Shown: in pieces, positions 6,960 to 64,000 of the stretch
Layout: each line of letters begins with the position of its first letter
How positions within the stretch are numbered: the stretch's first letter is position 1
NCBI RefSeq assembly: GCF_004010195.1
Contig: NC_057718.1
Location: 69,711,213 to 69,775,212, forward strand
DNA length: 64,000 nt
From: Chiloscyllium plagiosum
Lineage: Eukaryota
Direction: 5' to 3'
Translations under genes and position numbers: made by a program
The notes under the pieces: generated by a model
What the model was told of the DNA's origin: nothing
What the model saw: only the letters and a program-made list of their open reading frames with translations
Database searches by the model: none

Positions 6960-8350
6960 TTTCGTAGCTTTATAGTTTTAAAATGCCTTTACAGTAAACA
7001 ACTCCAATCAGAAGTTACAATTATTTTCTGTGCTTTTAAAGTTGCTGCTTGTTCTGTTAGAAACTTCAGTGCTGTTTATTCAGCTTGTTTAACAATGTTT
7101 CAACATCCAAAAGAACTGAAACTGAGGCTCCACCCCACATAACTTGAATTGTCGTGACTTTCTACCAGGGCCACTGAATTCCAACAATTTCAACTTGATT
7201 TCTTAGTCTCCTAAGGAGGGTATCTCAGTATCTTGTGAACCGTCTACCTCATGGACTATTTCCTTTTAAAATTTGATCTCTTGGCATGCTCTGCTATTTT
7301 GTTTATGTAGCATACTGCCTGAAAAAGCCCCAATTCTTTTACAATAAAGTTTTACTCTTTTTTAGATTTTAGATTAGATTCCCTACTGTGTGAAAACAGG
7401 CCCTTCGGCCCAACAAGTCCACACCGACCCGCCGAAGCGTAACCCACCCAGACCCATTCTCCGACATTTACCCCTTCATCTAATACTGTGGGCAATTTAG
7501 CGTGGCCAATTCGCCTGACCTGCACATTTTTGGATTGTGGGAGGAAACCAGAGCACCCGCAGGAAACCCACGCAGACACGGGGAGAATATGCAAACTACA
7601 CACAGAGAGTCGCCGGAGGCGGGAATTGAACCCGGGTCTCTGGCGCTGCGAGGCAGCAGTGCTAACCACTGTGCCACCGTACCGCTTTGATGAGACAATT
7701 CCAACAACCATGCCTTTATCTGCCACACCAACAGCAGCTAGTCTGGGCTGGGCTGCCATCAGATGCTTTCCTTCTATTGGTCATCTGTTTACCTGACAAA
7801 TTGAACCATATTTGTTACGTTGAGATTTGGAATGTTTGTCTCTTTTTTGCTGACTATCAATCAGTTCTGCCTCCTGAGCTCAGACTGTTTATTTTATTGA
7901 ATCATGTTCACCAGGATCAAGTTCTCTCAGGATTGCAAATGATCTGATTATGCATCATTCATTGCTCCAACAAATATCATGAATTAGCTTCTCTTTCAGA
8001 TTATGATTTACTGTTGTGCTAACTGGTTGTAATCATTAATAAATACGTTGATGAGTTGTCAACATCTCTGGGTATGTTTATTAATTGGCACGTGTTCCAT
8101 GACAATGATATTGTGAAGATTAAACTATGTCATCGCAAATGCATCAATAACTTGAGCACCTCAGGCATTCTCCTAACTGATCCCCAGACAACGAGATTGA
8201 CGTCCACATAGTTATCTATTGCATGCAAAAATGTGCTGAATTGCTTATGGTCTGCTTTTGCTGCAAATCCAACAGAATACAAAATCAAGAGAATGCAATG
8301 TACCACTGTGGCCATGCTTCAGACTGAGGCCTGCAACTGTCTGAAAGCAC
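6960..8350 (-). mobile_element. Degenerate Ty3/Gypsy gag-protease, interrupted by a SINE
   Basis: Frameshifted minus-strand translation gives LKEKLIHD..VGAMNDA*SDHLQS*ENL..KQSELRRQN (gag), zinc-knuckle remnants CCWCGR*RHGCWNC and ELGLFQAVC, then QFKL..GASVSVLL (protease DTGA region). Confidence 0.7.
7362..7685 (-). mobile_element. HE1-type SINE
   Basis: Same sequence as 869-1169 with TTAGA tail. Confidence 0.9.
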
Positions 8351-23739: not shown

Positions 23740-25105
23740 ATCAAACTATTCTAATTCCACTTTCCAGCACTTGGCCCATAGTCTTGTATGCCTTGGCACT
23801 GCAAGCATTTATCTAAATACTTCCAAATGACATGGGGGTTTCTGCCTCTACCACTTTTACAAGCAGCGAATTCCCAATTCCAAAGACAAGTTGTATTTCT
23901 TTCCCCACTACTGCCACCTTAGACCCTTGATTATTTAGATTTTTTTTTGGAATGCTACTGTCTTCCATCCTGATGAATAACACAAAGGATTTATTCAACT
24001 CTTCTGCCATTTCCTGGTTCTTCATTTTCCCATCCTCAATCTCCAAGCAGCCAATGTTATCCTTTGACCACTCACTTCTTTATTTATTTAAAAAAAACTT
24101 TCATTGTCCATCTTCATAATACTTGCAAGATTACCTGCAACATTTAATTTCATCCTCTCCATTTTGATCATCTTTCATTAGTCCTTAGATCTTTGCTGTC
24201 ATCTAGCTTATTATTAATCTTTGCCACATTGAATGAGAAAAAAAAACATGCAATTGGATGCTATCCTTAACTTCTTCGGTTTACCATAGTTGGCTTATGC
24301 CCTTCCCAGAATCCTTCTTCCTCACTGAAATATATCTTTGTTGTGTGTCATGAATTGTTTTCTTAAACATATGCCATTTTTTCTCAATCATCTTTACTGC
24401 TAAACATCTTTCCAAGTTCACTGCAACTAACCTGAATTTCATTCTTCCTAAATTGTTTTAGCATAGTTCTACTATATTGTGACCACTTTTTTCTATGGAT
24501 CTTTTATTTTAGAGATAGATTTAATAAATCTCATTATACTTTACCAAGTCCAAAACATCCGGTTCCCTGATTGGATCCACGCATTGATCTAGGAAACTGC
24601 CCAAATGCTCTCTATGAATTTTTCCATGTGGCGACCTGTGGCAAACTGACTACCCCAATCCAAATGAAGATTTATCTCAATGATTAAATGTACTGCCATT
24701 CCATATGCCCTCATTATCTCTTGATTTGTTCTCTCTCCAATAGTATAGATTAGATTAGATTAGATTAGATTACTTTCAGTGTGGAAACAGGCCCTTCGAC
24801 CCAACAAGTCCACACAACCCTCCAAAGAGACCCATTCCTCTACATTTACCCCTACACCTAACACTACGGGCAATTTAGCATGGCCAATTCACCTAACCTG
24901 CACATTTTTGGACGGAGAGAGGAAACCGGAGCACCCAGAGGAAACCCACGCAAACACGGGGAGAATGTGCAAACTCCACACAGACAGAGACCTGAGTTCA
25001 ATTCCTGAGGCAGGAATTGAACTCAGGTCTCTGGTGCTGTGAGGCAGCAGTGCTAACCACTATGCCTTCATGCCGCCTAAACTGTTAGGGGGCCTACAGA
25101 CTACA
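23740..25105 (-). mobile_element. Old CR1 fragments interrupted by a SINE
   Basis: NQEMAEELNKSF; VVCRPP flanking the SINE. Confidence 0.65.
24748..25077 (-). mobile_element. HE1-type SINE
   Basis: (TTAGA)n tail and tRNA-like head. Confidence 0.9.
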
Positions 25106-45934: not shown

Positions 45935-46258
45935 AGATTAGATTAGATTGGGAAGATTACTTACAGTGTGGAAACAGGCCCTTCAGCCCAACAAGTCCAC
46001 ACCGACCCGCCGAAGCGCAACCCACCCATACCCCTACATTTGCCCCTTATCTACCACTACAGCAATTTAGCATGGCCAATTCACCTGACCTGCACATCTT
46101 TGGACTGTGGGAGGAAACCGGAGCACCCGGAGGAAACCCACACAGACACGAGGAGAATGTGCAAACTCCACACAGTCAGTCGCCTGAGTCGGGAATTGAA
46201 CCCGGGTCTCTGGCGCTGTGACGCAGCAGTGCTAACCACTGGGCCACCGTGCCGCCCA
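45935..46258 (-). mobile_element. HE1-type SINE
   Basis: Full-length copy with AGTAGAT flanking repeat. Confidence 0.9.
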
Positions 46259-46536
46259 CAGTAGATACTTTGGTTTGGATTTTGTAAGCATGTGCTAGAC
46301 AATCTAATGTTCACATTTTTTGATTTTGTTATTGTAAAATTCTTTAAACTATGAACCTAGTGGCTTGAATCTTTTAGTAATCTTTTGGATTCGAAACAGA
46401 AATCCTGATCTCTACAAAAAGAACAAGAGTTTGATGCCTGACTAAGTTTCTAGTATGACAAGAAAATGATTATAGAGAGTGTAAGCATCATACAGAAAAT
46501 TTTATGGAAATTAAAACATGCTGCACTTTATGAATT

Positions 46537-47247: not shown

Positions 47248-47583
47248 GATTAGATTAGATTAGATTAGATTAGATTAGATTAGATTACAGTGTAGAAACA
47301 GGCCCTTCGGCCCAACAAGTCCACACCGACCCGCCGAAGCGAAACCCACCCATACCCCTACATTTACCCTTTACCTAACACTACGGGCAATTTAGTATGG
47401 CCAATTCACCTGACCCTGCACATCTTTGTGATGTGGGAGGAAACCGGAGCACCCAGAGGAAACCCACGCAGACACGGGGAGAACGTGCAAACTCCACACA
47501 GTCAGTCGCCTGAGGCAGGAATTGAACCCGGGTCTCTGGCGCTGTGAGGCAGCAGTGCTAACCACTGTGCCACCGTGCCACCC
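47248..47583 (-). mobile_element. HE1-type SINE with (TTAGA)n tail
   Basis: Pentamer repeat at 47248-47287 plus SINE body. Confidence 0.92.
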
Positions 47584-51570: not shown

Positions 51571-54003
51571 TTATGGTGCAATTGTCAGGAACTATTGCAT
51601 GAGAGCTCTGGACAAGCAATGCATGGTCACAGCACAACTGACTTTTAAAGATGGTGCTGGTACCAGGGATGCCAATCAAGTTTAGGATCCCAGCAGTGGC
51701 AAATATGGAAAGGTGGAGATGGAATTGGATGAGAAGGGAAGGACAAGTAGTTAATAAGGTTAATTGGCAAGATACAGTGAGAACTCTGGCTAGGCCTTGA
51801 AGAAAAATCTATAAAATCCTGTGCAACTAATAGGCGAAAAAATACCATGTAGCCTCAAGTCTTCATTGAGTACACAATGTTTGAACAACAAAATGTAAAT
51901 TGGATCAAAGGGCATAACCTCATGGGTCTGATATTCCTCACAGGAATCTTTATTGAAGTTAAGATTTTAAATCTCTGTCATCTAGAGAAGTTGGCCACAC
52001 ATTGCTGCTTTATTCAAAACTTGCAGTTCCTCTCATTTTCCTCTCATTTCCTCTCATGCCTTGTCTTTAACAATGTCTAGACTTCATCATTTTTTCCTGA
52101 AACTTGAAATAGACATGATGCAGAACATTTATATTATTTATTAAATATTCCTCTGCTTTATTTGTAGCTTAATTTGATAATTTCCAATTATATCTTAGTG
52201 CTTAATCTTATTTCTGTAATTGTGACATAGTTGTTTATATCAAAGTTGTGACTGTTGTTTGTATGTTTTTTATGTTATAATGGTAAAATTTATGTACCAG
52301 AACAAATGTAAATAGCTTAATCTTAGTTTACTTCTTGATTATTTTATATTGAAGAACTAGTCCCATCTACTAAGTAGTCAATCTATTATTTATTATTATC
52401 TATTATTTAATTGAAGGTATGAACTAACGCAAAGTTACAACATTAAAAATGAAGAAAATTATCTGATATGTAGCAAAACTAATGAATATTATTCTGCTTC
52501 ATAGGTGTTGTTCTAGTTTTGAAACATTTTACTACCCTTCTTTATCTCTTATCTTTTACACATTTTGTTCATAAAGACATAAGCTTATTTCATCTTAAGT
52601 GATGACGTGATATTTGTGGGCATACTAGTAGAAACTTAAGACTCGGTGACAACAGAGGAATCTGGTAACGTAATGCCTTCTGGTTCCTCTTTTTGTAAGG
52701 TTAGTTTAGTAAAAATGTCTGTCAGGTTGGAAGGTTGCATTGTCAAGATAACATATTTAAAAATTAAATAATTTATTTGTGGTTGAAGAGAAAGGAATTT
52801 GTGATAAGGTAGATGTGCCTCTGTGTTGTCACTACAGTCTGTAATATCTCATTGGTTTTGTTAGGCCACGTGGGCATCCACGCATTTCCAGCCCTTGAGT
52901 CCTGTCTTGTGCATTATGGGTACCGGATTAAATGCTACCTTGTTAACAAACTGCAGTGACAAGAAACATTTCCCTTTAGATTCACTACTGGTTGAAAGTG
53001 GCATCCAGCAGGCAGAGGAATCGTCCTGGTAGATTTGAAATGAGTAGAACATACTTTTGTTTAATTAGAAGCTTTGTTGGACCACAGAAGCGACAATTTG
53101 CACTGAAACTGGGGCTGCCTGTGTAAGGATGTTCAGAACATAGCTGACGAAGACAAAGAGGGAGGATAGCAATGGGCCAATGAGAAATCATAGGTTATCA
53201 AGGGAGAAAGCTGCACTGTAGAGGCAACATCTGTGTCTACTGATGGGTCACGAAGCATGATTGTGGGAAATACGGTGTTATTGAGGAATGCCAAAACGTC
53301 ACTAATGAGGTTGTGAGAGTTGGAGATAAGAGAGAACAGGATCAGTGCAATAGTTTGCAGTATGATGACAATGGCTGATGGGACAATGGATTAATGGGGT
53401 GTGGAGCAGGTGGAGACTGCTTTGGACAGGGGGAAGAAACTCTTATTGTTGCAGGACAAATTGAAGGAGAACTTGGAGGAAGGCATTGCTAAAATATAGG
53501 TCCACTTGATGTTTGCTCTGAGACATAATTTTAGAATAAACAGGTTGGCAGCAGTTGAGGTTACTTAGGGTTGGGGTAGATAATCAGATAGTAGCAAAAA
53601 TGTATCAAAATATAGTATAAGAGAGCATTCAAGGGGCAACGTTAGGCTTACCAAAATGAGATGTCAACTTGGTGAAGCGACACCACAGGAAAATTTGCAT
53701 TCCCAAACAACGGAAGCAGCATGCATTGGCAGGGCAAAGCAATCCTACAAGTAACCGATTAGATCAAAGTTCTGCAGTCCTGCTACATACAGTCATAAAT
53801 CATGGTAGACAACTGAACAACTAACTGAAGGGGAAGGCTCCATAAATATCCCCATACTCAATGGTAGGGGAACCCAGCACATCAGAGCTGAAATGTTTAC
53901 AACAATCTTCAGTCAGAAGTTCCAAGTGGATGATCCATTTCAGCTTCCTATGTCCCAGGCACCAATTGGTGGAAGCATCAACTGTGAATGCAAGGATGCA
54001 ACA

Positions 54004-54258
54004 GCCTCTGGCAACTCTCTGTGTGAAGTTTGCACATTCTCCCCATGTCTGTGTGGGTTTCCTCCGGGTGCTCCAGTTTCTCCTACAATCCAAAAATGTG
54101 CAGGTTAGGTGAATTGGCCATGCTAAATCACCCATAGTGTTAGGTGAAGGGGTAAATGTAGGAGAATGGGTCTGGGTGGGTTGCGCTTCGGCAGGTCAGT
54201 GTGGACTTGTTGGGCCGAAGGACCTGTTTCCACACTGTAAGTAATCTAATCTAATCTA
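54004..54258 (+). mobile_element. HE1-type SINE, 5'-truncated
   Basis: SINE body with GTAATCTAATCTAATCT tail. Confidence 0.88.
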
Positions 54259-55302: not shown

Positions 55303-55685
55303 AGAGTCCATACAGTGTGAAGCAGGCCAGTTGGCCCATTGAGCCCACACAGGCCCTGTTAAGAGCATTCCTCCTAGACCCACCATCTACACTATCCCTG
55401 TAAACCTGCATTCCCCAGGGCTAATTCATCTAGTCTGCACATCCCTGGAACACTATAGGGCAATTTATATGGCCAATCCATCCAATGTGCGCATCTTTGT
55501 AGAGATGAGCCTACAAGTAACCGATTAGATCAAAGAGATGAAACCAGAGCGCCAGGAGGAAACCTACGTAGTTACGGGGAGAATGTGCAAACTTCATACA
55601 AACAGTTGCCTGAAGGTGGAATCGAAATTGAATTCCTGGCACTGTGAGGCAACAGTACTAACCACTGAGCCACTGTGACACCTCG
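55303..55685 (-). mobile_element. Older tRNA-derived SINE
   Basis: GGAGAATGTGCAAAC and AACCACTGAGCCAC motifs. Confidence 0.75.
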
Positions 55686-55814
55686 CAATAGACTTCATCT
55701 GAAGTTCTTAGAAAGGGTTGCTAATGAGGTAATACTGCTGTTAATTTTCCAAAATTCATTACATTTTGGTAAGGTTTCATGACCCCAGAAGAAAGTAAAT
55801 ATAAAGACAATCTT

Positions 55815-56027
55815 ACATGAGAGGTAGCTTCCCAGGCAGGGGAAATGTTCCACATTTGGCAGGATTTCTCCATTAATCTTAATGAAGAGATAGACCAGAA
55901 CTTGACCTGGGATGTATTGATAAAGGGGTTGAGTCTTCTTGACGTTGAAGCTGAGACCAATTCTTCAGTATGCATCCACAAGGCATTTTGTAAGGCTTGA
56001 AGATTCTCGTCTGAGAGAGCAGATATG
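55815..56027 (-). mobile_element. RTE-clade LINE RT fragment
   Basis: AY*RIGLSFNVKKTQPLYQ..IKINGEILPNVEHFPCLGSYLS. Confidence 0.7.
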
Positions 56028-56262
56028 TGAAATAACTCCACAGAAGCTGGTATCAGTTCACCAAGTCACCCCTTATTTAAACATGCATAGTATGTGGACT
56101 CTGTTCAGCTAGCTTAGAGCCAGTCCTTAGAGTGAGGAGACTTTTGAATCTCCTGTTTATATCTGTCAGCTAGGGTTCCCTGATTATCTCAGGTTAACAG
56201 CCTTAATCAGGGAAATCATACTTGATGAGATCCTCCTGGCCAACCTTGTTCCAATCATGACA
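56028..56262 (-). repeat. 3' LTR of the Gypsy element
   Basis: TG...CA termini, adjacent polypurine tract (plus strand TCCCTCCC at 56263), homologous to 62546-62670. Confidence 0.8.
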
Positions 56263-57814
56263 TCCCTCCCACACTATGTCTGGAGATGTTAGCCTGTTCT
56301 TTTTCTTGAAGCTCCTCTTGACACTTTTTCGCCCCAGGTCCATTAGCTCTGACTCTGACTCAGATACAGGTGGCATGTATTGGATCATAGCCCGTCTCTT
56401 GCACCTGGAGCATCTGAAAGGAAATTCATCCTCTTCTTCAGGTGGTAACAGTATCAAGGCTGCGATATTAACTGCATTTTTCTTGGACTCTGAGGTTTCT
56501 TTGAAGCTAGACAGAGAGGGAGAACCCATGTTTTGTGACAGCCTTTCTGGCTATTCGAAGGGACCGGGTATGTTTTTCTCCAGCCCTGTTTGCGAGATAG
56601 CAGCTTTCATGTGATCCACATGTTTGTTCAGGACCACCTCACCTACCTGAACTTTGTATGTCACAAGACCTAGCATCAACCTTGCCTTGTACCATGCACA
56701 GCCATGTCCGTGGTTTCAACACCAAACCTTGTCCCATGAAGTAAACTATCTTAAAAAAAGGCATATGGCTGGCCTGGCATTCTTGATACAATTTCACTCT
56801 CCCTTCCAGATCCAGGAATATCAGGTTTAACCTGGTACAGAGTTTTCCTCCCATCAGCACTCTGTTTGAATTATTGCTGTAGATGCATGAGAGGTAGTTC
56901 TATAATTAAACAGGAATTGGGACAATTTGGTATCAAGTGAAGCATTAAGCTTCTTTAAGGCTGCCTTTAATGTTTGGATTGCTCTTTTCACCAGACCATT
57001 TGAATGGAGCTGTTCGAACATGCGAAATGCCTTTCAATTTTAGGAAATACTTGAAATCCCTGCTGGTAAATAGCATCCCATTTTTGGCTACGTCTGCATT
57101 CAATCCTGGTCACCAAAAATAAAGTCTGCTAGCATCCTCATTTTGGAAACCCCTGGATAACTCTTGTGTCTGGCATTGACCTTTACTCTTCATAATAATA
57201 TGTCATCCTCAATGCTGATCTGGTCTCACCAGGTCTAGAAAGGTTTCAATCCTAGTTGTGATGGCCTTTTTAATTTCCCCATCATCACCAGTTGTTTTAG
57301 TTTTACCAAGACGGGATCTTTTCGTGGCCACAGTTGGATATTATCAGCAGTGACCGGAATATGGTCCAAAAAATTTAAAACCAGAACAGACTCTCCCAGG
57401 GATGCACTACTAGTGGTGATCTGCCAGTGGGAAGCAGCTGAAGGTACCTGCATTTACCCCTTGGCCTCCTGGTACTGGTGAAACTTTCTCACACAAAAGG
57501 TAACCAGACCTTCCTTCTGGTGCATTTGCAATCAGCATCAGCCAACATCTGGGATGCATATGCTTTTGGATGTTCCTCTCCATTAAGCCACTGGTGAGTC
57601 ATCACTACTCCCATACTACACAGAGAGGCATCACCTGTCAGCAGCACATCTCGCTTGGGATCGTAGTGGGCCAACACCTCTGACAATGATAGCTACTTTT
57701 TTACTTCCCTAAAAGTCACTTCTTGGCAATGTGACCATTTCCAAGAATGACATTTTTTCAGTAGCATGTGCCAAGATGGAGGCCAAGTTACCTATAAATT
57801 TTCCGTAATATCCA

Positions 57815-59345
57815 GTCCCTCTACACCTCCATCCACCATGACCAGGACCTCCAAGCCCTCCGTTTCTTCCTCTCCCGACGTCCCCAACAGTACCCTTCCA
57901 CCGACACTCTCATTCGTTTGGCCGAACTGGTCCTCACCCTTAACAATTTCTCCTTCGAATCCTCCCACTTCCTCCAGACCAAAAGGGTGGCCATGGGAAC
58001 TCGTATGGGCCCCAGCTATGCCTGTCTCTTTGTTGGCTACGTAGAACAGTCCATCTTCCGTAATTACACCGGCACCACTCCCCACCTCTTCCTCCGCTAC
58101 ATTAAAGAGTGCATTGGTGTCACCTCGTGCTCCCGCAAGGAGGTTGAGCAATTCATCAACTTCACCGACACATTCCACCCTGACCTTAAATTTACTGGAC
58201 CATCTCTGACACCTCCCTCCCCTTCCTGGACCTCTCCATCTCCATTAATGATGACCGACTTGACACTGACATTTTTTACAAACCCACCAACTCCCACAGC
58301 TACCTGGATTACCTCTTCCTACCCTACCTCCTGCAAAAATGCCATCCCGTATTCCCAATTCCTCCGCCTCCGCCGTATCTGCTCCCAGGAGGACCAGTTC
58401 CACCACAGAACACACCAGATGGCCTCCTTCTTTAGAGACCGCAATTTCCCTTCCCACGTGGTTAAAGATGCCCTCCAACACATCTCGTCCACATCCCGCA
58501 CCTCCGCCCTCACACCCCATCCCTCCAACCGTAACAAGGACAGAACGCCCCTCGTGCTCACCTTCCANNNNNNNNNNNNNNNNNNNNNNNNNNNNNNNNN
58601 NNNNNNNNNNNNNNNNNNNNNNNNNNNNNNNNNNNNNNNNNNNNNNNNNNNNNNNNNNNNNNNNNNNNNNNNNNNNNNNNNNNNNNNNNNNNNNNNNNNN
58701 NNNNNNNNNNNNNNNNNNNNNNNNNNNNNNNNNNNNNNNNNNNNNNNNNNNNNNNNNNNNNNNNNNNNNNNNNNNNNNNNNNNNNNNNNNNNNNNNNNNN
58801 NNNNNNNNNNNNNNNNNNNNNNNNNNNNNNNNNNNNNNNNNNNNNNNNNNNNNNNNNNNNNNNNNNNNNNNNNNNNNNNNNNNNNNNNNNNNNNNNNNNN
58901 NNNNNNNNNNNNNNNNNNNNNNNNNNNNNNNNNNNNNNNNNNNNNNNNNNNNNNNNNNNNNNNNNNNNNNNNNNNNNNNNNNNNNNNNNNNNNNNNNNNN
59001 NNNNNNNNNNNNNNNNNNNNNNNNNNNNNNNNNNNNNNNNNNNNNNNNNNNNNNNNNNNNNNNNNNNNNNNNNNNNNNNNNNNNNNNNNNNNNNNNNNNN
59101 NNNNNNNNNNNNNNNNNNNNNNNNNNNNNNNNNNNNNNNNNNNNNNNNNNNNNNNNNNNNNNNNNNNNNNNNTCCTCTCATTTATCTCTCCACCCTTTAG
59201 GCATTCTGCCTGTATTCCTGATGAAGGACTTTTGCCCGAAACTTTAATTTTACTGCTCCTCGGATGCTGCCTGAACTGCTGTGCTTTTCCAGCACCACTA
59301 ATCCAGAATCTGGTTTCCAGCATCTGCAGTCATTGTTTTCACCAA
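57815..59345 (+). mobile_element. Penelope-like element RT (spans gap)
   Basis: VAMGTRMGPSYACLFVGYVE, LRYIKEC (decayed YIDD), AIPYSQFLRLRRICS; terminal repeat with CTGATGA..GAAA at ~59218-59242. Confidence 0.92.
58568..59172. other. Assembly gap (N run)
   Basis: Ns in the sequence. Confidence 1.
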
Positions 59346-59711
59346 ATCAAGGAAAGACCTAAGTTCTGGTATAGACATGGGAGCTGGGACACATTTGATC
59401 GCTTTTATTTTATGTTCCAATGGGTGTAACCTTGAATGAACAACTCTGTAGCCCAAGTAGTCCACTTGGGGTGCTTAGAACACACACTTTTCCCATCTAG
59501 GACCTATGCCTGCCTGAGAGAAATATTTAAACACCATGTCTATGTACTCCAAATGCATTTCATTGGTCTTTCTGATTACTAGCACGACTTCCAGATAAAT
59601 GGCAAACTGGGGTTAACCTTGCAAAATGTTGTCCATCATCCACTGGAAAAGGGCACAGGGTGATAATACCCCAAATGGCAGTCTTCTATATTGGTTCAAG
59701 CCCTTATAGGT

Positions 59712-60019
59712 ATTAGATTTTTAGATTAGATTACAGTGTGGAAATAGGCCCTTCGGCCCAACAAGTCTACATCGACCCGCCGAAGCGTAACCCACCCATA
59801 CCCCTACATTTACCCCTTACCTAACACTACGGGTAATTTAGCATGGCCAATTCACCTAACCTGCACATTTTTGGACTGTGGGAGAAAATCGGAGCAAACC
59901 CACGCAGACACAGGGAGAATGTGCAAACTCCATACAGTCAGTCGCCTGAGGCAGGAACTGAACCTGGGTCTCTGGCGCTGTGAGGCAGCAGTGCTAACCA
60001 CTGTGCCACCGTGCCGCCC
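59712..60019 (-). mobile_element. HE1-type SINE
   Basis: Full-length copy in Gypsy pol. Confidence 0.9.
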
Positions 60020-60677
60020 ACTAATTGTGGCAAACTTCAGGGACTCCTCTTCATACACAATTAGAGGTATGCATGGCTCATGTTCTGCTTTGTGACAGAC
60101 AGCTCCCTCCCCTCTAGGCAAGGGACAGGGTAATTACTCAGCTACAAGAAGTGGTTTACTATTGGCTTAAAATCCCCATGACGGCAAACCAACCCATCAG
60201 GCTTCACAATTGGTATAATTGTCCCAATGTCATTTGCCTAGAAAAAAAAACACATTCTTTTCACATGCAGGGCTCAGTCTTCAGAGGCAGCATCAAACTA
60301 GTCAAGCTTCCCAAATAAAGGTGCTGCCCATTCCACAAATTGTACTAATTGTTTGTTGATCCCTTCATTTTCCAGCCTCATTTCTGCCTCTACATTTGCA
60401 CATAAGGCACTGGGTGAGTCTTGCAGAAACATGGTTTGTCTTCCTGACCACTATGTAAGGTAGTCTTGGCTCCTTTGGAAGTCCCTAGACCTTCCTGAAA
60501 ATCTTTCAGGTATTTAATTCAGGCAGCCATTTTCTAACTGAAAAATGTTGAGTCAATCAAGGTGAATCATTCTCAACCAATTCTGCCCCATCACGCTTGA
60601 GCCTGAGAATTTTACCACAATCAGTGGTGATTGCACCAACTACTTCTCATGGGACAGTGGAACCAAAGTTGAACCTG

Positions 60678-60985
60678 TGGGTGGCACGGTGGCACAGTGG
60701 TTAGCACTGCTGCCTCACAGCGCCGGAGACCCGGGTTCAATTCCCGCCTCAGGCGACTGACTGTGTGGAGTTTGCACATTCTCCCTGTGACTGCGTGAGT
60801 TTCCTCCAGGTGCTCCAGTTTCCTCCCACAGTCCAAAGATGTGCAAGTCAGGTGAATTGGCCATGCTAAATTGCCCGCAGTGTTAGGTAAGGGGTAAATG
60901 TATGGGTGGGTTTCGCTTCAGCGGGGCGGTGTGGACTTGTTGGGCCAAAGGGCCTGTTTCCACACTGTAATGTAATCTAATCTAA
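60678..60985 (+). mobile_element. HE1-type SINE
   Basis: A and B boxes; (TCTAA)n tail. Confidence 0.9.
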
Positions 60986-61700
60986 TGTTAATCTGTGGAA
61001 CCTTAATCTGTAACAAAACCCCGATTATACATTTTCAGTCTGACCAAGTTCATGTGTAAACTTAAGGGTTAGAGTCCAGAGCAAATCTTGTTAAAGACTG
61101 GTTCTGCAATCACTGACACAAGCTGCACTGATATTGACCTCTATTAGCAGCAGGTGACCATTTCACCAGGCATTTATTTTGGTTGGTTCTGATTTTGATG
61201 TTGCTAAGCAATTTAACTGTTCCAAACTACATGTAGGTGGACTTGCCAAAGTGTGCACTATTCTGGATACTGGTCTATGAATTCTCTTACTCACATCAGG
61301 CCTCATAGGGCACCTTTGCTGCTTCAAGTCCACATACCAACAGCGACAACAATGGCTTGCCGGCCTGGATTCTGAAGAAAATTGTAGCCGACTTTATTTT
61401 CAGGTTTTGCTGTGTGCTAACCTAGGGTCCTTCTGCTCAGGATATGTCCTGTGTGAGGCTATGCAATTGAGTACACTCAAGTGGTGTTCCCCACACTCAG
61501 TCAGACAGGTGAGGATGTCTATTTCCATCAGGGTACCCTGTAGCTCACTTGCTCCTCTTGCCACATTTTCTATTGACTCAGCTAATTGTTGTATCTGTTT
61601 GTAGTCCACTTGGGCTTTGTTTAGTAGATATTTTCGCAAGATTAATCCCACATTCCAAATGGTCTGTCAGCATCTCATTCAGTGTTAAACCAAAATCACG

Positions 61701-61832
61701 TAGAGTCATGGAGATGTCTAGCATGGAAACAGACCCTTCGGTCCAACCTGTCCATGCCGACCAGATATCCCAACCCGATCTAGTCCCACCTGCCAGCACC
61801 CGGCCCATATCCCTCCAAACCCTTCCTATTCA
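61701..61832 (-). mobile_element. CR1 extreme 3' end
   Basis: Matches 1173-1305. Confidence 0.8.
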
Positions 61833-62051
61833 TTGTCTTAATTACGTCAAAAATCCGAATATAGATTCCCCTGGTTTTTGAATTGCTGAGTAAAGCTGAA
61901 AGCATCACAGAATTGGGGTTGTAATATTCTTTAATTAAATCCAGTAACTCTTGAAAGACTTTTGAAAACTCTTTAGTATCTGGTGCCTCAGAGAAATTTA
62001 GGCTCCTATTAACCAAAAGTGCTCAGGCCCACAAGCAATCATAAGAATTTT

Positions 62052-62357
62052 GGGCATCATGGTGGCTCAGTGGTTAGCACTGCTGCCTCACAGCGCTAGG
62101 GATCCAGGTTTAGTTCCAGCCTCAAGTGTTTGTCTGTGTGGAGTTTGCACATTCTCCCCATGTCTGGGTGGGTTTCCTCCCACAGTCCAAAAATGTACAA
62201 GTCAGGTGAATTGGCCATGCTAAATTGTCGATAGTGTTAGGTGTGTGAATCAGAAGGAAATAGGTCTGGGTAGGTTACTCTTACTCTGGGAGGGTCAGTG
62301 TGGGCTTGTTGGGCCAAAGGGCCTGTTTCCACACTGTAGGGAATCTAACCTAATCTA
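62052..62357 (+). mobile_element. HE1-type SINE
   Basis: GGTGGCTCAGTGGTTAGC head; CTAATCTAA tail. Confidence 0.88.
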
Positions 62358-62545
62358 ATTATTTGTTGCTTTTTCAACTGCCCCAATGTCATTTGCCCAG
62401 ACAAAAAACATATTCTTTTCATATACAGGATTGAACTGGTCAAGCTTCCTAAATAAAGGCATGATCCTAGAAAGGCTTACCACTACTCAAAGATGACTTT
62501 TGCAAGCAAAATGTCTAGGAGTGTACAGTTTTATTTCGTCACCAC

Positions 62546-62670
62546 TGAAATAACTCCATGAAGGCCGGTATCCCATCACCAAGTCACCCTTAATTTATAT
62601 TTGCTCAGTACATGTAGCTGGCTCAGAGCCAATCCCGAGAGTGAACGTAAACTCTGACACTCCTGTTTAT
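62546..62670 (-). repeat. 5' LTR of the Gypsy element (R/U5 side), interrupted at its TATA box
   Basis: Aligns to 56028-56160 up to CTCCTGTTTAT, where the alignment breaks. Confidence 0.8.
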
Positions 62671-62807
62671 TTATTTTTTTCTTTTCTTTTTCTTTCAGTT
62701 TCTACCACTAGGAAGAAAAGAAACACTCAAGTGGCCAGTGACAAGCAATGCCCTTCACATCAAAACACTCCTGGTTTTTTTTGTTTGTTTTTTTCTCTTC
62801 TTTTTTT

Positions 62808-63094
62808 CAACAGGCCCTTCGGCCCAACAAGTCCACACTGACCCTTCGAAGAGTAACCCACCCAGACTCCTTTCCCTCTCACTAATGCACCGAACACCAT
62901 GGGCAATTTAGCATAGCCAATTCACCTGACCTGCTCATCTTTGGACTGTGGGAGGAAACCGGAGCACCCGGAGGAAACCCACGCAGACACGGGGAGAATG
63001 TGCAAACTCTACACAGTCACCAGAGGCTGGAATCGAACCTGGGACCCTGGTGCTGTGAGGCAGCAGTGCTGACCACTGAGCCACCATGCTGCCC
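62808..63094 (-). mobile_element. HE1-type SINE with poly(A) tail (array unit B)
   Basis: Complete tRNA head; body ends at GGGCCTGTTG followed by an A-rich tail instead of (TCTAA)n. Confidence 0.88.
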
Positions 63095-63107
63095 TCACAC
63101 TCCTGTT

Positions 63108-63460
63108 AATTTTTAAAAATTTTTTGCTATACCAATTTCCATTTAATTAGTAGTAAGAAAAAGACTGAGGAATTAGTGACAGCTATTGCGTTTTCATACA
63201 GAAGGCACAGAATATCCCATATGACAGGGAATCACAGATTGCAGTCAGTTCAGTCACTCTCCCCCCACGGTGAGCCTGTCAAACAGGTACTCTCCCAGGC
63301 CATTCTCAGGGGCTCCCAATCTCTTCAGGTTGGTGATATGATCTCCCAGATTCTTGATCATCTTCACTTGCTTATCCAGGTAGTGTCCCTCCAGGAAGTC
63401 ACAAAGATGAGGGTCCATGTGGTCAGAGGAGAATTTGTGCAGATCCAGCAGACTCTAGTT
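63108..63460 (-). pseudogene. Ferritin (heavy/middle-type) processed pseudogene, 5'-truncated (array unit C)
   Basis: [63 protein letters not shown], then 3'UTR, ATTAAA and an A-rich tail. Confidence 0.95.
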
Positions 63461-63559
63461 ACACTCCTGTTTTTTTTTGCGGGTGTGAGACACAGTGAGA
63501 GACACAAGGTGTATGAATCTTTATTCAATTTCCACCACCAGGAAGATACACTCCTGTTT

Positions 63560-63977
63560 TTTTTTCTTCTTATTTTTTAACCCCCACACTACCGCCTAAC
63601 TGTGGTAGTGCTTATTTTTTCCCCAGCACCCATGGTGTGCGTGTGCAGGTGTGAGACACAGTGAGAGACACAAGGTGCATGAATCTTTATTCAATTTCCA
63701 CCACCAGGAAGATAGGAAAACACCCGGGTGGCCAGTGACAAGCACTCCCCTTCACATCAAAGGGCAGTGCTGTGTGATCAAACAGTGAGGGGGAGGGTAG
63801 GGACTAAATCAAAATAGAGTTGGAGGGAGAAATAATGCACTCCACTCCCTGCGGCGCCCACCTCTCCCTGAACAACTCCAGGGTGTTGGTGGACACCCCA
63901 TGCTCCTTCTCCAAGGACACCCGGGCCCTAACGTAACTGCGGAAGAGGGGCAGGCAGTCGGCACTAACGACCCCCTA
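63560..63977 (-). mobile_element. Tx1-clade LINE 3' end (array unit E); shorter copies at 62669-62764 and 63473-63547
   Basis: ORF2 C-terminus DCLPLFRSYVRARVSLEKEH..LELFRERWAPQGVECII, stop at 63804-63806; 3'UTR shared with units A and D. Confidence 0.8.
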
Positions 63978-64000
63978 TCACTCCTGTTTATTTTTTAAAA

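Follow-up and report, generated by a model that had tools for sequence, protein, structure and literature searches.

What process has placed tailed copies of RNAs, all in one orientation, behind each of six copies of a short motif at the end of a stretch of shark DNA? The window (the whole stretch analysed, 64,000 nucleotides) covers positions 69,711,213 to 69,775,212 of contig NC_057718.1 in the RefSeq assembly GCF_004010195.1 of Chiloscyllium plagiosum. A preliminary description, made from the letters of the window, took this array for a CRISPR-like locus in which a site-specific Tx1 machinery archives its own and unrelated germline RNAs behind a repeated target. Our analysis leads to a plainer answer: the array is very probably a stack of retrotransposition products that has grown at one of the sites preferred by a long interspersed nuclear element (LINE) of the Tx1 clade. 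The phenomenon is real and is widespread in this genome, and it belongs to a known kind of transposon behaviour. The array itself is a by-product of that process and implies no host function.

The motif CACTCCTGTT is present on the + strand in five exact copies and in one copy with a single mismatch (CACTCCTGGT), and the six together span 1.33 kb (62658-63988; Table 1). Each is followed by a T tract, and the insert behind every T tract reads as a minus-strand copy of an RNA. No exact copy was found beyond the array on either strand of the 64-kb window; four further matches with one mismatch are dispersed through it, three of them on the opposite strand. The window-wide total of matches with at most one mismatch, 10 against a mean of 6.1 in shuffled sequence, is unremarkable when taken alone. 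Chance is excluded as the source of six clustered copies on the same strand, each with a T tract behind it. The preliminary description had listed six copies with mismatches in the second and the third; the number and the mismatch in the second are right, and the third copy, at 63098, is exact over the 10-mer and differs only in the next bases (..GTTAA). An Rfam scan of 55500-64000 returned only two sub-threshold matches resembling small nucleolar RNAs, and no ribozyme or tRNA-type family.

The array does not end with the window. The sixth unit, seen to start at the window edge, is present there with ~2 kb more array behind it, and the whole array amounts to ~11 units in 3.35 kb. Past the window the units follow one another in the order F1, F2, G, H, X, I, and further target copies lie at window-equivalent positions 64057 (CACTCCTATT), 64426, 64807, 65733 (CATTCCTGTTTA) and 66005. 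After the last of these (L009 4218) the sequence continues as CACTCCTGTTTATATTTGTTGGCCAAGGCTCCCTGATTGG, which is the right half of the target repeat. An extension of the contig had been predicted to uncover the other half of a long terminal repeat (LTR), the prediction having been drawn from an empty paralogue at 56150, and this half is found at window-equivalent 66005. Sequence comparison confirms that units A and D are pieces of the Tx1 3' untranslated region (3'UTR), unit A being 85% identical to unit E where the two correspond and unit D 97% identical to 63644-63714, and that unit E is the end of open reading frame 2 (ORF2) with the UTR behind it. The 3' ends of the units vary, those of A, D and G differing from those of E and H, and all of them are tailed.

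When reverse-complemented, the sequence behind the T tracts is the 3' end of a LINE, a pattern found in at least 5922 copies in the 3.56-Gb assembly, over which all genome-wide counts were taken, against 0 for the control. In a long copy of the element, the reverse transcriptase (RT) region of ORF2 is 59% identical, at 100% coverage, to the Xenopus laevis YTX2/Tx1 149-kDa protein (E 4.8e-181), and ORF2 is 51% identical to Xenopus Tx1 across 949 colinear amino acids. The Pfam family RVT_1 matches ORF2 at E 4.5e-33, and zf-RVT matches it at E 1.8e-5, with 25.8 bits against a cut-off of 27.5 and with a CxxC..H..C stretch visible in P0002. Judged by this kinship the inserting element is a Tx1-clade LINE, and the label given to the inserts in the preliminary description was well chosen. 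The LINE also has the N-terminal APE-type endonuclease of the clade; this part is 41% identical over 110 amino acids to Tx1 residues 101-210, and Pfam Exo_endo_phos reaches E 0.0013, a match that stays under its cut-off, the copy examined being frameshifted in the endonuclease domain. The longest uninterrupted ORF2 frame among the LINE copies has 1438 amino acids, and a frame of 2149 amino acids holds an internal TAA. A near-full-length locus of the LINE (L061) consists partly of N.

The preference of this LINE for one site is visible across the genome. A search for the motif followed by a T run (ACACTCCTGTTTTTTT), which the preliminary description had suggested, gives 513 occurrences against 2 for the reversed control. 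When LINE 3' ends were sampled without regard to their flanks, the motif (at most one mismatch) stood directly upstream of the T tract in 13 of 30, and the remaining ends mostly carry degenerate forms of it, by reading of the flanks. A Tx1 family counts as target-specific in PMC4494074 when more than 20% of its flanks are of one kind, a proportion that 13 of 30 exceeds; the flanks of unselected tails are therefore not random, and the Tx1 is a site-preferring one, as had been proposed. Eight filled sites were also inspected; every one of them has a half of the target repeat on at least one side, and five have a half on each side. Having been selected by the motif and T run, they are not independent evidence of the preference. 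The empty site, CTGACACTCCTGTTTATATCTGT, occurs at least 5251 times with at most two mismatches, against 0 for the reversed control, and alignment of 20 empty-site loci outlines a repeat of ~235 bp with the ends TG..CA. The diverged copy of this repeat at 56028-56260 in the window matches at least 17 of the 20.

The borders of the arrays reveal how the target survives each insertion. At the left ends, ..CTCTGA is followed by CACTCCTGTTTA and then by a T run, and the native left flank passes into the 12-mer without a break; at the right ends, the 5' end of an insert is followed by CACTCCTGTTTA and then by TATCTG.., and the 12-mer passes directly into the native right flank. The 5' border of the 12-mer shifts by 1-3 nt among loci. 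A duplication of 10-13 bp thus lies on both sides of the inserts, in agreement with the view that the target is regenerated as a target-site duplication.

We propose the following mechanism for the growth of such arrays. The APE-type endonuclease would nick the + strand within ..CACTCCTGTTT/A/TATCTG.., inside the ~235-bp LTR-like repeat of another retroelement, and the T-rich 3' end would prime reverse transcription on the poly(A) tail of an RNA (target-primed reverse transcription). A second-strand cut ~10-13 bp upstream would duplicate CACTCCTGTTTA and leave an intact target copy on each side of the insert. Later insertions could then strike a target copy again, and inserts of one orientation would pile up with a target copy between each. 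The LINE would usually copy its own RNA, with heavy 5' truncation and from alternative polyadenylation points; initiation appears to need a poly(A) tail alone, as we infer, because the 3' ends of the LINE units are variable and tailed. Other RNAs would be copied occasionally, among them a retroposon of ~360 nt, the transcript of a short interspersed nuclear element (SINE), ferritin mRNA and chimeric or 5'-extended RNAs, and unequal recombination or replication slippage among neighbours would have added the copies E, F2 and G. The order of these events is likewise our reconstruction.

One of the foreign cargos is ferritin. Unit C contains the last 66 codons and the stop of a ferritin (about 63254-63454; Pfam Ferritin E 8.4e-6), which confirms its description as the 3' part of a ferritin mRNA. 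The ferritin genes of contig C39 match unit C in two pieces, with an intron of ~265-320 bp between them, and in unit C and at twelve other loci the sequence runs unbroken past the point of this intron (query positions 53-55). Unit C also has an A-rich tail and target copies on both sides; by these marks it is a processed pseudogene. Its best match elsewhere is 93%. Six of the 13 intronless ferritin copies, those of the window, L042, L045, L046, L047 and L085, adjoin the target itself or a variant form. At L042 and L045 the ferritin copy is followed by a truncated LINE and at L046 by units of a second retroposon (family I, described below); L047 has AGCAGGAATG in duplicate and is bordered by the target repeat, one half to each side. 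Another three copies are ambiguous (L041, L044 and L087): behind the tail of each comes a short remnant that resembles the target, and behind that a SINE oriented like the ferritin copy. The ferritin 3'UTR ends at the same point in L041 and L087, which may be duplicates of one composite. On contig C39 itself, between about 4.62 and 4.72 Mb, ferritin genes or parts of such genes are clustered in tandem; there are at least 12 of them, which contain introns and are 91-94% identical to unit C.

SINE transcripts have reached the same target. Junctions of the SINE head with the target number 11 genome-wide, against 0 for the control, a count that includes the window's own junction and two from one locus. 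With these junctions and the six ferritin copies, the claim that unrelated RNAs were copied into one and the same site is upheld. Unit B had been described as a full SINE; its 5' end is present, and the last ~21-32 nt of the normal tail are absent, with an A-rich tail in their place.

Family I is a young, high-copy, non-autonomous retroposon, often found in tandem; it is ~360 nt long, contains AATAAA and ends in a poly(A) tail. A first look gave at least 2398 candidates, and the 40 that were scored are 72-100% identical, most of them 92-99%. It occupies the same target in L010, L030, L031, L037 and L046, and no similarity was found between family I and the LINE. Unit I had been considered as the 3'UTR of an mRNA, an identification that we rejected when it proved to be this high-copy retroposon. 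The array also holds X, a non-repeat stretch of 468 nt (L009 3439-3906) that is 100% identical at three loci, including L082 (521-1387) and C17:1502863-1503330, and that in the array has a 39-nt piece of family I attached at its 5' end. X joins the LINE at L009 3438, and at C24 it is likewise fused to a LINE tail that lacks its 5' part, through exactly the same nucleotide. This identical junction led us to reject a one-off template switch between X and H; the two together are probably the copy of a composite RNA, a transcript that would have begun in flanking DNA upstream of a truncated LINE. The composite of X and LINE looks recently retrotransposed.

Stacking is the rule at this target. Seven of the eight filled sites selected by the motif contain more than one unit; stacks of five or six LINE tails occur in L010, L030, L035, L037 and L038, and single units lie between both target halves at L003 and L004. 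The array of the window stands at the large and diverse end of this sample and does not differ from it in kind. The notion of a fixed locus must therefore be given up, because the target belongs to a repeat scattered through the genome, at least 5251 copies of which are empty, and stacks are found at seven of eight sampled filled sites.

Separate insertions do not account for every unit, and this raises an alternative in which one composite unit was amplified in tandem, in the manner of a satellite, through slippage or unequal crossing-over. One 5' junction (..CCCCCTAT joined to CACTCC) is common to units E, F2 and G, and the junction of CTAACGACCCCCTAT with CACTCCTGTT occurs three times genome-wide, always within this array. 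We had considered microhomology as the cause of the common truncation, and rejected it because the junction is confined to the array. At least two units would therefore have come from local duplication or unequal exchange, and the supposition that every unit is an independent insertion fails. A comparable junction occurs twice in tandem on C16, and adjacent units with the same truncation point are also present in L007 and L008. As an explanation of the whole array, however, amplification is unlikely: units A, B, C, D, E, H with X, and I are unlike one another in content, in both junctions and in the position of the tail, single units stand between both target halves at L003 and L004, and ferritin is found at the same target at independent loci.

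Still less credit can be given to a retro-array used by the host, which would log germline RNAs in order and yield small RNAs, with a function like that of CRISPR or of a cluster of PIWI-interacting RNAs (piRNAs). The repeat-spacer layout, the single orientation and the inclusion of unrelated RNAs among the cargo are what such an array would have. The likeness to CRISPR arrays lies in a short constant repeat that alternates with variable inserts in one orientation. Unlike those arrays, the present one has no acquisition or interference genes and no leader polarity, its inserts are tailed retrotranscripts, and its sites are dispersed in thousands of empty and filled copies. The preliminary description had itself called the resemblance architectural only, and rightly, since nothing indicates a function. 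Its idea of an archive finds no support. Cargo was scored in 41 filled target copies that had not been used for selection, and it was the LINE's own tail in 37 (~90%), family I in two, target-repeat sequence in one and an unidentified sequence in one. Ordered addition along the arrays was a further candidate, and we dropped it: with the median identity of a unit to units at other loci as a proxy for age, which is crude, 22 of the adjacent pairs had the higher score in the right unit and 22 in the left, and no age gradient was seen. Growth of part of the array by duplication also speaks against such a record.

An artefact of assembly, in which reads from many Tx1-occupied sites were joined wrongly, is about as improbable as host use. 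The region is composed of high-copy repeats, which invites such errors; nevertheless, a single target repeat supplies both flanks of the array, one half to each side, and the left half adjoins internal retroelement sequence shared with other loci, the contents and junctions of the units are unique, and the same architecture is present at most of the sampled loci on other contigs. Least credible of all is a 12-mer carried in on the inserted RNAs, for instance by read-through from an earlier site, for while source copies within a target site could yield transcripts that include the flanking target copy, and the unit of X and LINE demonstrates that flanking sequence can travel along, the same 12-mer borders the unrelated cargos ferritin, SINE and family I, runs on into the native repeat at either end of the array and likewise where sites are empty, and shifts at its 5' border by 1-3 nt as staggered cuts predict.

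Several points weigh against the interpretation of the array as a stack of insertions at a preferred target, or limit it. The order and the junctions of the array are known from the assembly sequence alone. About six of the 30 sampled LINE tails have no recognisable target by reading of their flanks, and the sequence data indicate a preference for a decaying repeat family, not an absolute specificity. Cargo other than the LINE is rare, with two family I units and one "other" among the 41 filled copies. Four of the 13 ferritin copies lie elsewhere (L043, L083, L084 and L086), and L043 has a different duplication, of 15 bp; other machinery or off-target events must therefore also make retrocopies. 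Unit B lacks the usual tail of its SINE and ends in an A-rich stretch that the proposed mechanism does not account for. Units E, F2, G and H are nearly equally alike, with mutual identities of 95.4-97.1%, and in the right-hand part of the array duplication can be told from re-insertion only by the shared junction. The positions of the nicks are deduced from the sequence: the first would lie on the + strand at the TTT/A/T step and the second 10-13 bp upstream.

Stacks that form by re-use of a regenerated target are familiar from the site-specific LINEs R1 and R2 in ribosomal DNA, which give rise to head-to-tail copies; those elements belong to another clade and have another target, and we know of no mixed cargo in R1/R2 arrays. 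Chimeric U6-L1 copies are known among retrocopies of the L1 type.

The closest precedent is that of the crocodilian Tx1-Mar families, which target a family of Mariner elements (Kojima 2015, PMC4494074). According to the same paper, retroposons named SINEU, which have poly(A) tails, use the Tx1-Mar target, and tandem copies of SINEU-3 "sandwiching a TSD" (target-site duplication) were ascribed to sequential insertion. It further reports two Tx1 families, Tx1-8_Crp and Tx1-4_AMi, that prefer LTR retrotransposons. As far as the accessible portions of these sources describe them, Tx1-Mar with SINEU-3 and the present system have in common a Tx1-clade LINE, a preferred site within another transposon family, the sharing of that site with poly(A) retroposons and tandem insertions. 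The target here is, in contrast, an LTR-like repeat of ~235 bp with other sequence, not Mariner, and the stacks reach ~11 units, include ferritin mRNA and a tRNA-type SINE as cargo and have grown in part by local duplication. The Tx1L element of Xenopus laevis targets Tx1D, a non-autonomous piggyBac DNA transposon (PMC4494074, PMC1950540). It resembles the shark element in its APE-type endonuclease and in its use of one site inside another mobile element, and Tx1 is the closest named protein; the element that contains its target is of another kind, the target of the shark LINE lying in an RT-bearing retroelement and not in a DNA transposon of piggyBac type. Trans-mobilisation by L1 acts on cellular RNAs that carry a poly(A) tail and gives rise to processed pseudogenes and SINE copies; these are 5'-truncated, are bordered by target-site duplications and start from a nick at the T-run/A step (PMC3747384). 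L1 as described there inserts almost anywhere, unlike the present LINE, whose products gather at one defined 12-mer.

In the open-access literature, we found no report of a Tx1 target in sharks or of mRNA retrocopies that collect at a Tx1 site. Measured against what is accessible of PMC4494074, what is new here is the Tx1 target, the longer and more mixed stacks and the presence of mRNA cargo at the site; the logic is the one described there. The shark locus adds a Tx1 family of the cartilaginous-fish type whose target, a 12-mer within another retroelement's terminal repeat, is newly defined, and provides an unusually clear case of a regenerated target that lets insertions accumulate. It does not reveal a new kind of system.

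The occurrence of mRNA and SINE copies at the same defined site, with ferritin recurring independently, suggests site-specific insertion combined with a relaxed choice of template. It is an even question, to our minds, whether the LINE joins a strict target to the tail-only template choice of L1, so that the thousands of 12-mers would serve as landing pads for a large share of the processed pseudogenes in this genome. If they do, its ORF2 protein would be a naturally occurring enzyme able to write polyadenylated RNA of any kind into a defined DNA site in trans. The system bears on the search for natural enzymes that place RNA-encoded cargo at fixed DNA sites, and on which LINEs generate retrocopies in non-mammalian vertebrates. 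A 2026 preprint, as far as its accessible text goes, connects the number of retrocopies in non-mammals with their content of Tx1 and CR1.

The coordinates of the array, of its surroundings and of other features of the window are given in Table 1. The window holds approximately ten other copies of the same tRNA-type SINE as unit B, 71-84% identical to one another, and these have a normal 3' tail unlike that of unit B.

Table 1. Array units, target copies and neighbouring features; positions beyond 64000 are window-equivalent
Feature	Position	Strand	Remarks
Target repeat, left half, occupied	62546..62657	+	Internal retroelement sequence before it, from ~62357
Target copy 1 (CACTCCTGTTTA)	62658..62669	+	Joins native left flank
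Target copy 2 (CACTCCTGGT)	62766..62775	+	One mismatch
Target copy 3 (CACTCCTGTTAA)	63098..63109	+
Target copy 4	63462..63471	+
Target copy 5	63549..63558	+
Target copy 6 and start of unit F	63979..64000	+	Array proceeds past window edge
Unit A	62658-62765 (insert 62670..62765)	-	A-rich tail and ~72 nt of Tx1 3'UTR
Unit B	62766-63097 (insert 62776..63097)	-	tRNA-type SINE, complete 5' end, A-rich tail 62776-62808
Unit C	63098-63461 (insert 63110..63461)	-	Intronless ferritin mRNA copy, 5'-truncated, 3'UTR and A-rich tail
Unit D	63462-63548 (insert 63472..63548)	-	71 nt of Tx1 3'UTR; tail starts past internal AATAAA
Unit E	63549-63978 (insert 63559..63978)	-	C-terminal end of Tx1 ORF2, full 3'UTR and tail
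Unit F1	63979-64056		Tiny LINE piece
Units F2, G	64057-64425, 64426-64806		LINE tails; 5' junction as in E
Unit H	64807-65225		LINE tail; 5' end fused to X, no target copy between
X	65226-65732		507-nt stretch
Unit I	65733-66004 (L009 3946-4217)		3' part of another retroposon (family I)
Diverged target repeat copy, empty	56028..56260	+	Free site ..TCTCCTGTTTATATCTGTCAGC..; internal retroelement sequence behind
RT-like frame of target-bearing retroelement	57798..58559	+	RVT_1 only E 0.078
tRNA-type SINE copies	864-1170, 7362-7678, 24754-25081, 45937-46260, 47269-47578
tRNA-type SINE copies, further	54002-54258, 59712-60020, 60676-60986, 62051-62359

The retroelement that owns the target repeat can be described in part. 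An RT-like frame lies between the repeat copies at 56028 and 62546, which are just 70% alike. The internal sequence next to the empty copy is common to L074, L066 and L069, and the sequence before the left flank of the array is common to other loci; the array appears from this arrangement to occupy the downstream terminal repeat of an RT-bearing retroelement. A run of 847 N at window ~58560-59400 falls within this element, between both target repeats, and the RT-like frame stops there. A Pfam search with the frame gave no match at E 0.01, and its nearest Atlas clusters are of RVT_1/HTH_animal type, mostly from rotifers. No clear target duplication was seen around the retroelement. "LTR" would be a fair description of the host repeat; it is equally possible that the owner is a Penelope-like element with pseudo-LTRs, a lead that we offer because the RT resembles the RVT_1/HTH_animal clusters. 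Just downstream of the insertion site the target repeat has a conserved, perfect inverted repeat of 10 bp (CCCTGATTGG .. CCAATCAGGG) with a spacing of ~20 nt, seen for example at window 56163-56210 and at about 1530-1570 in L062-L081, and the insertion site itself overlaps a conserved TTTATAT.

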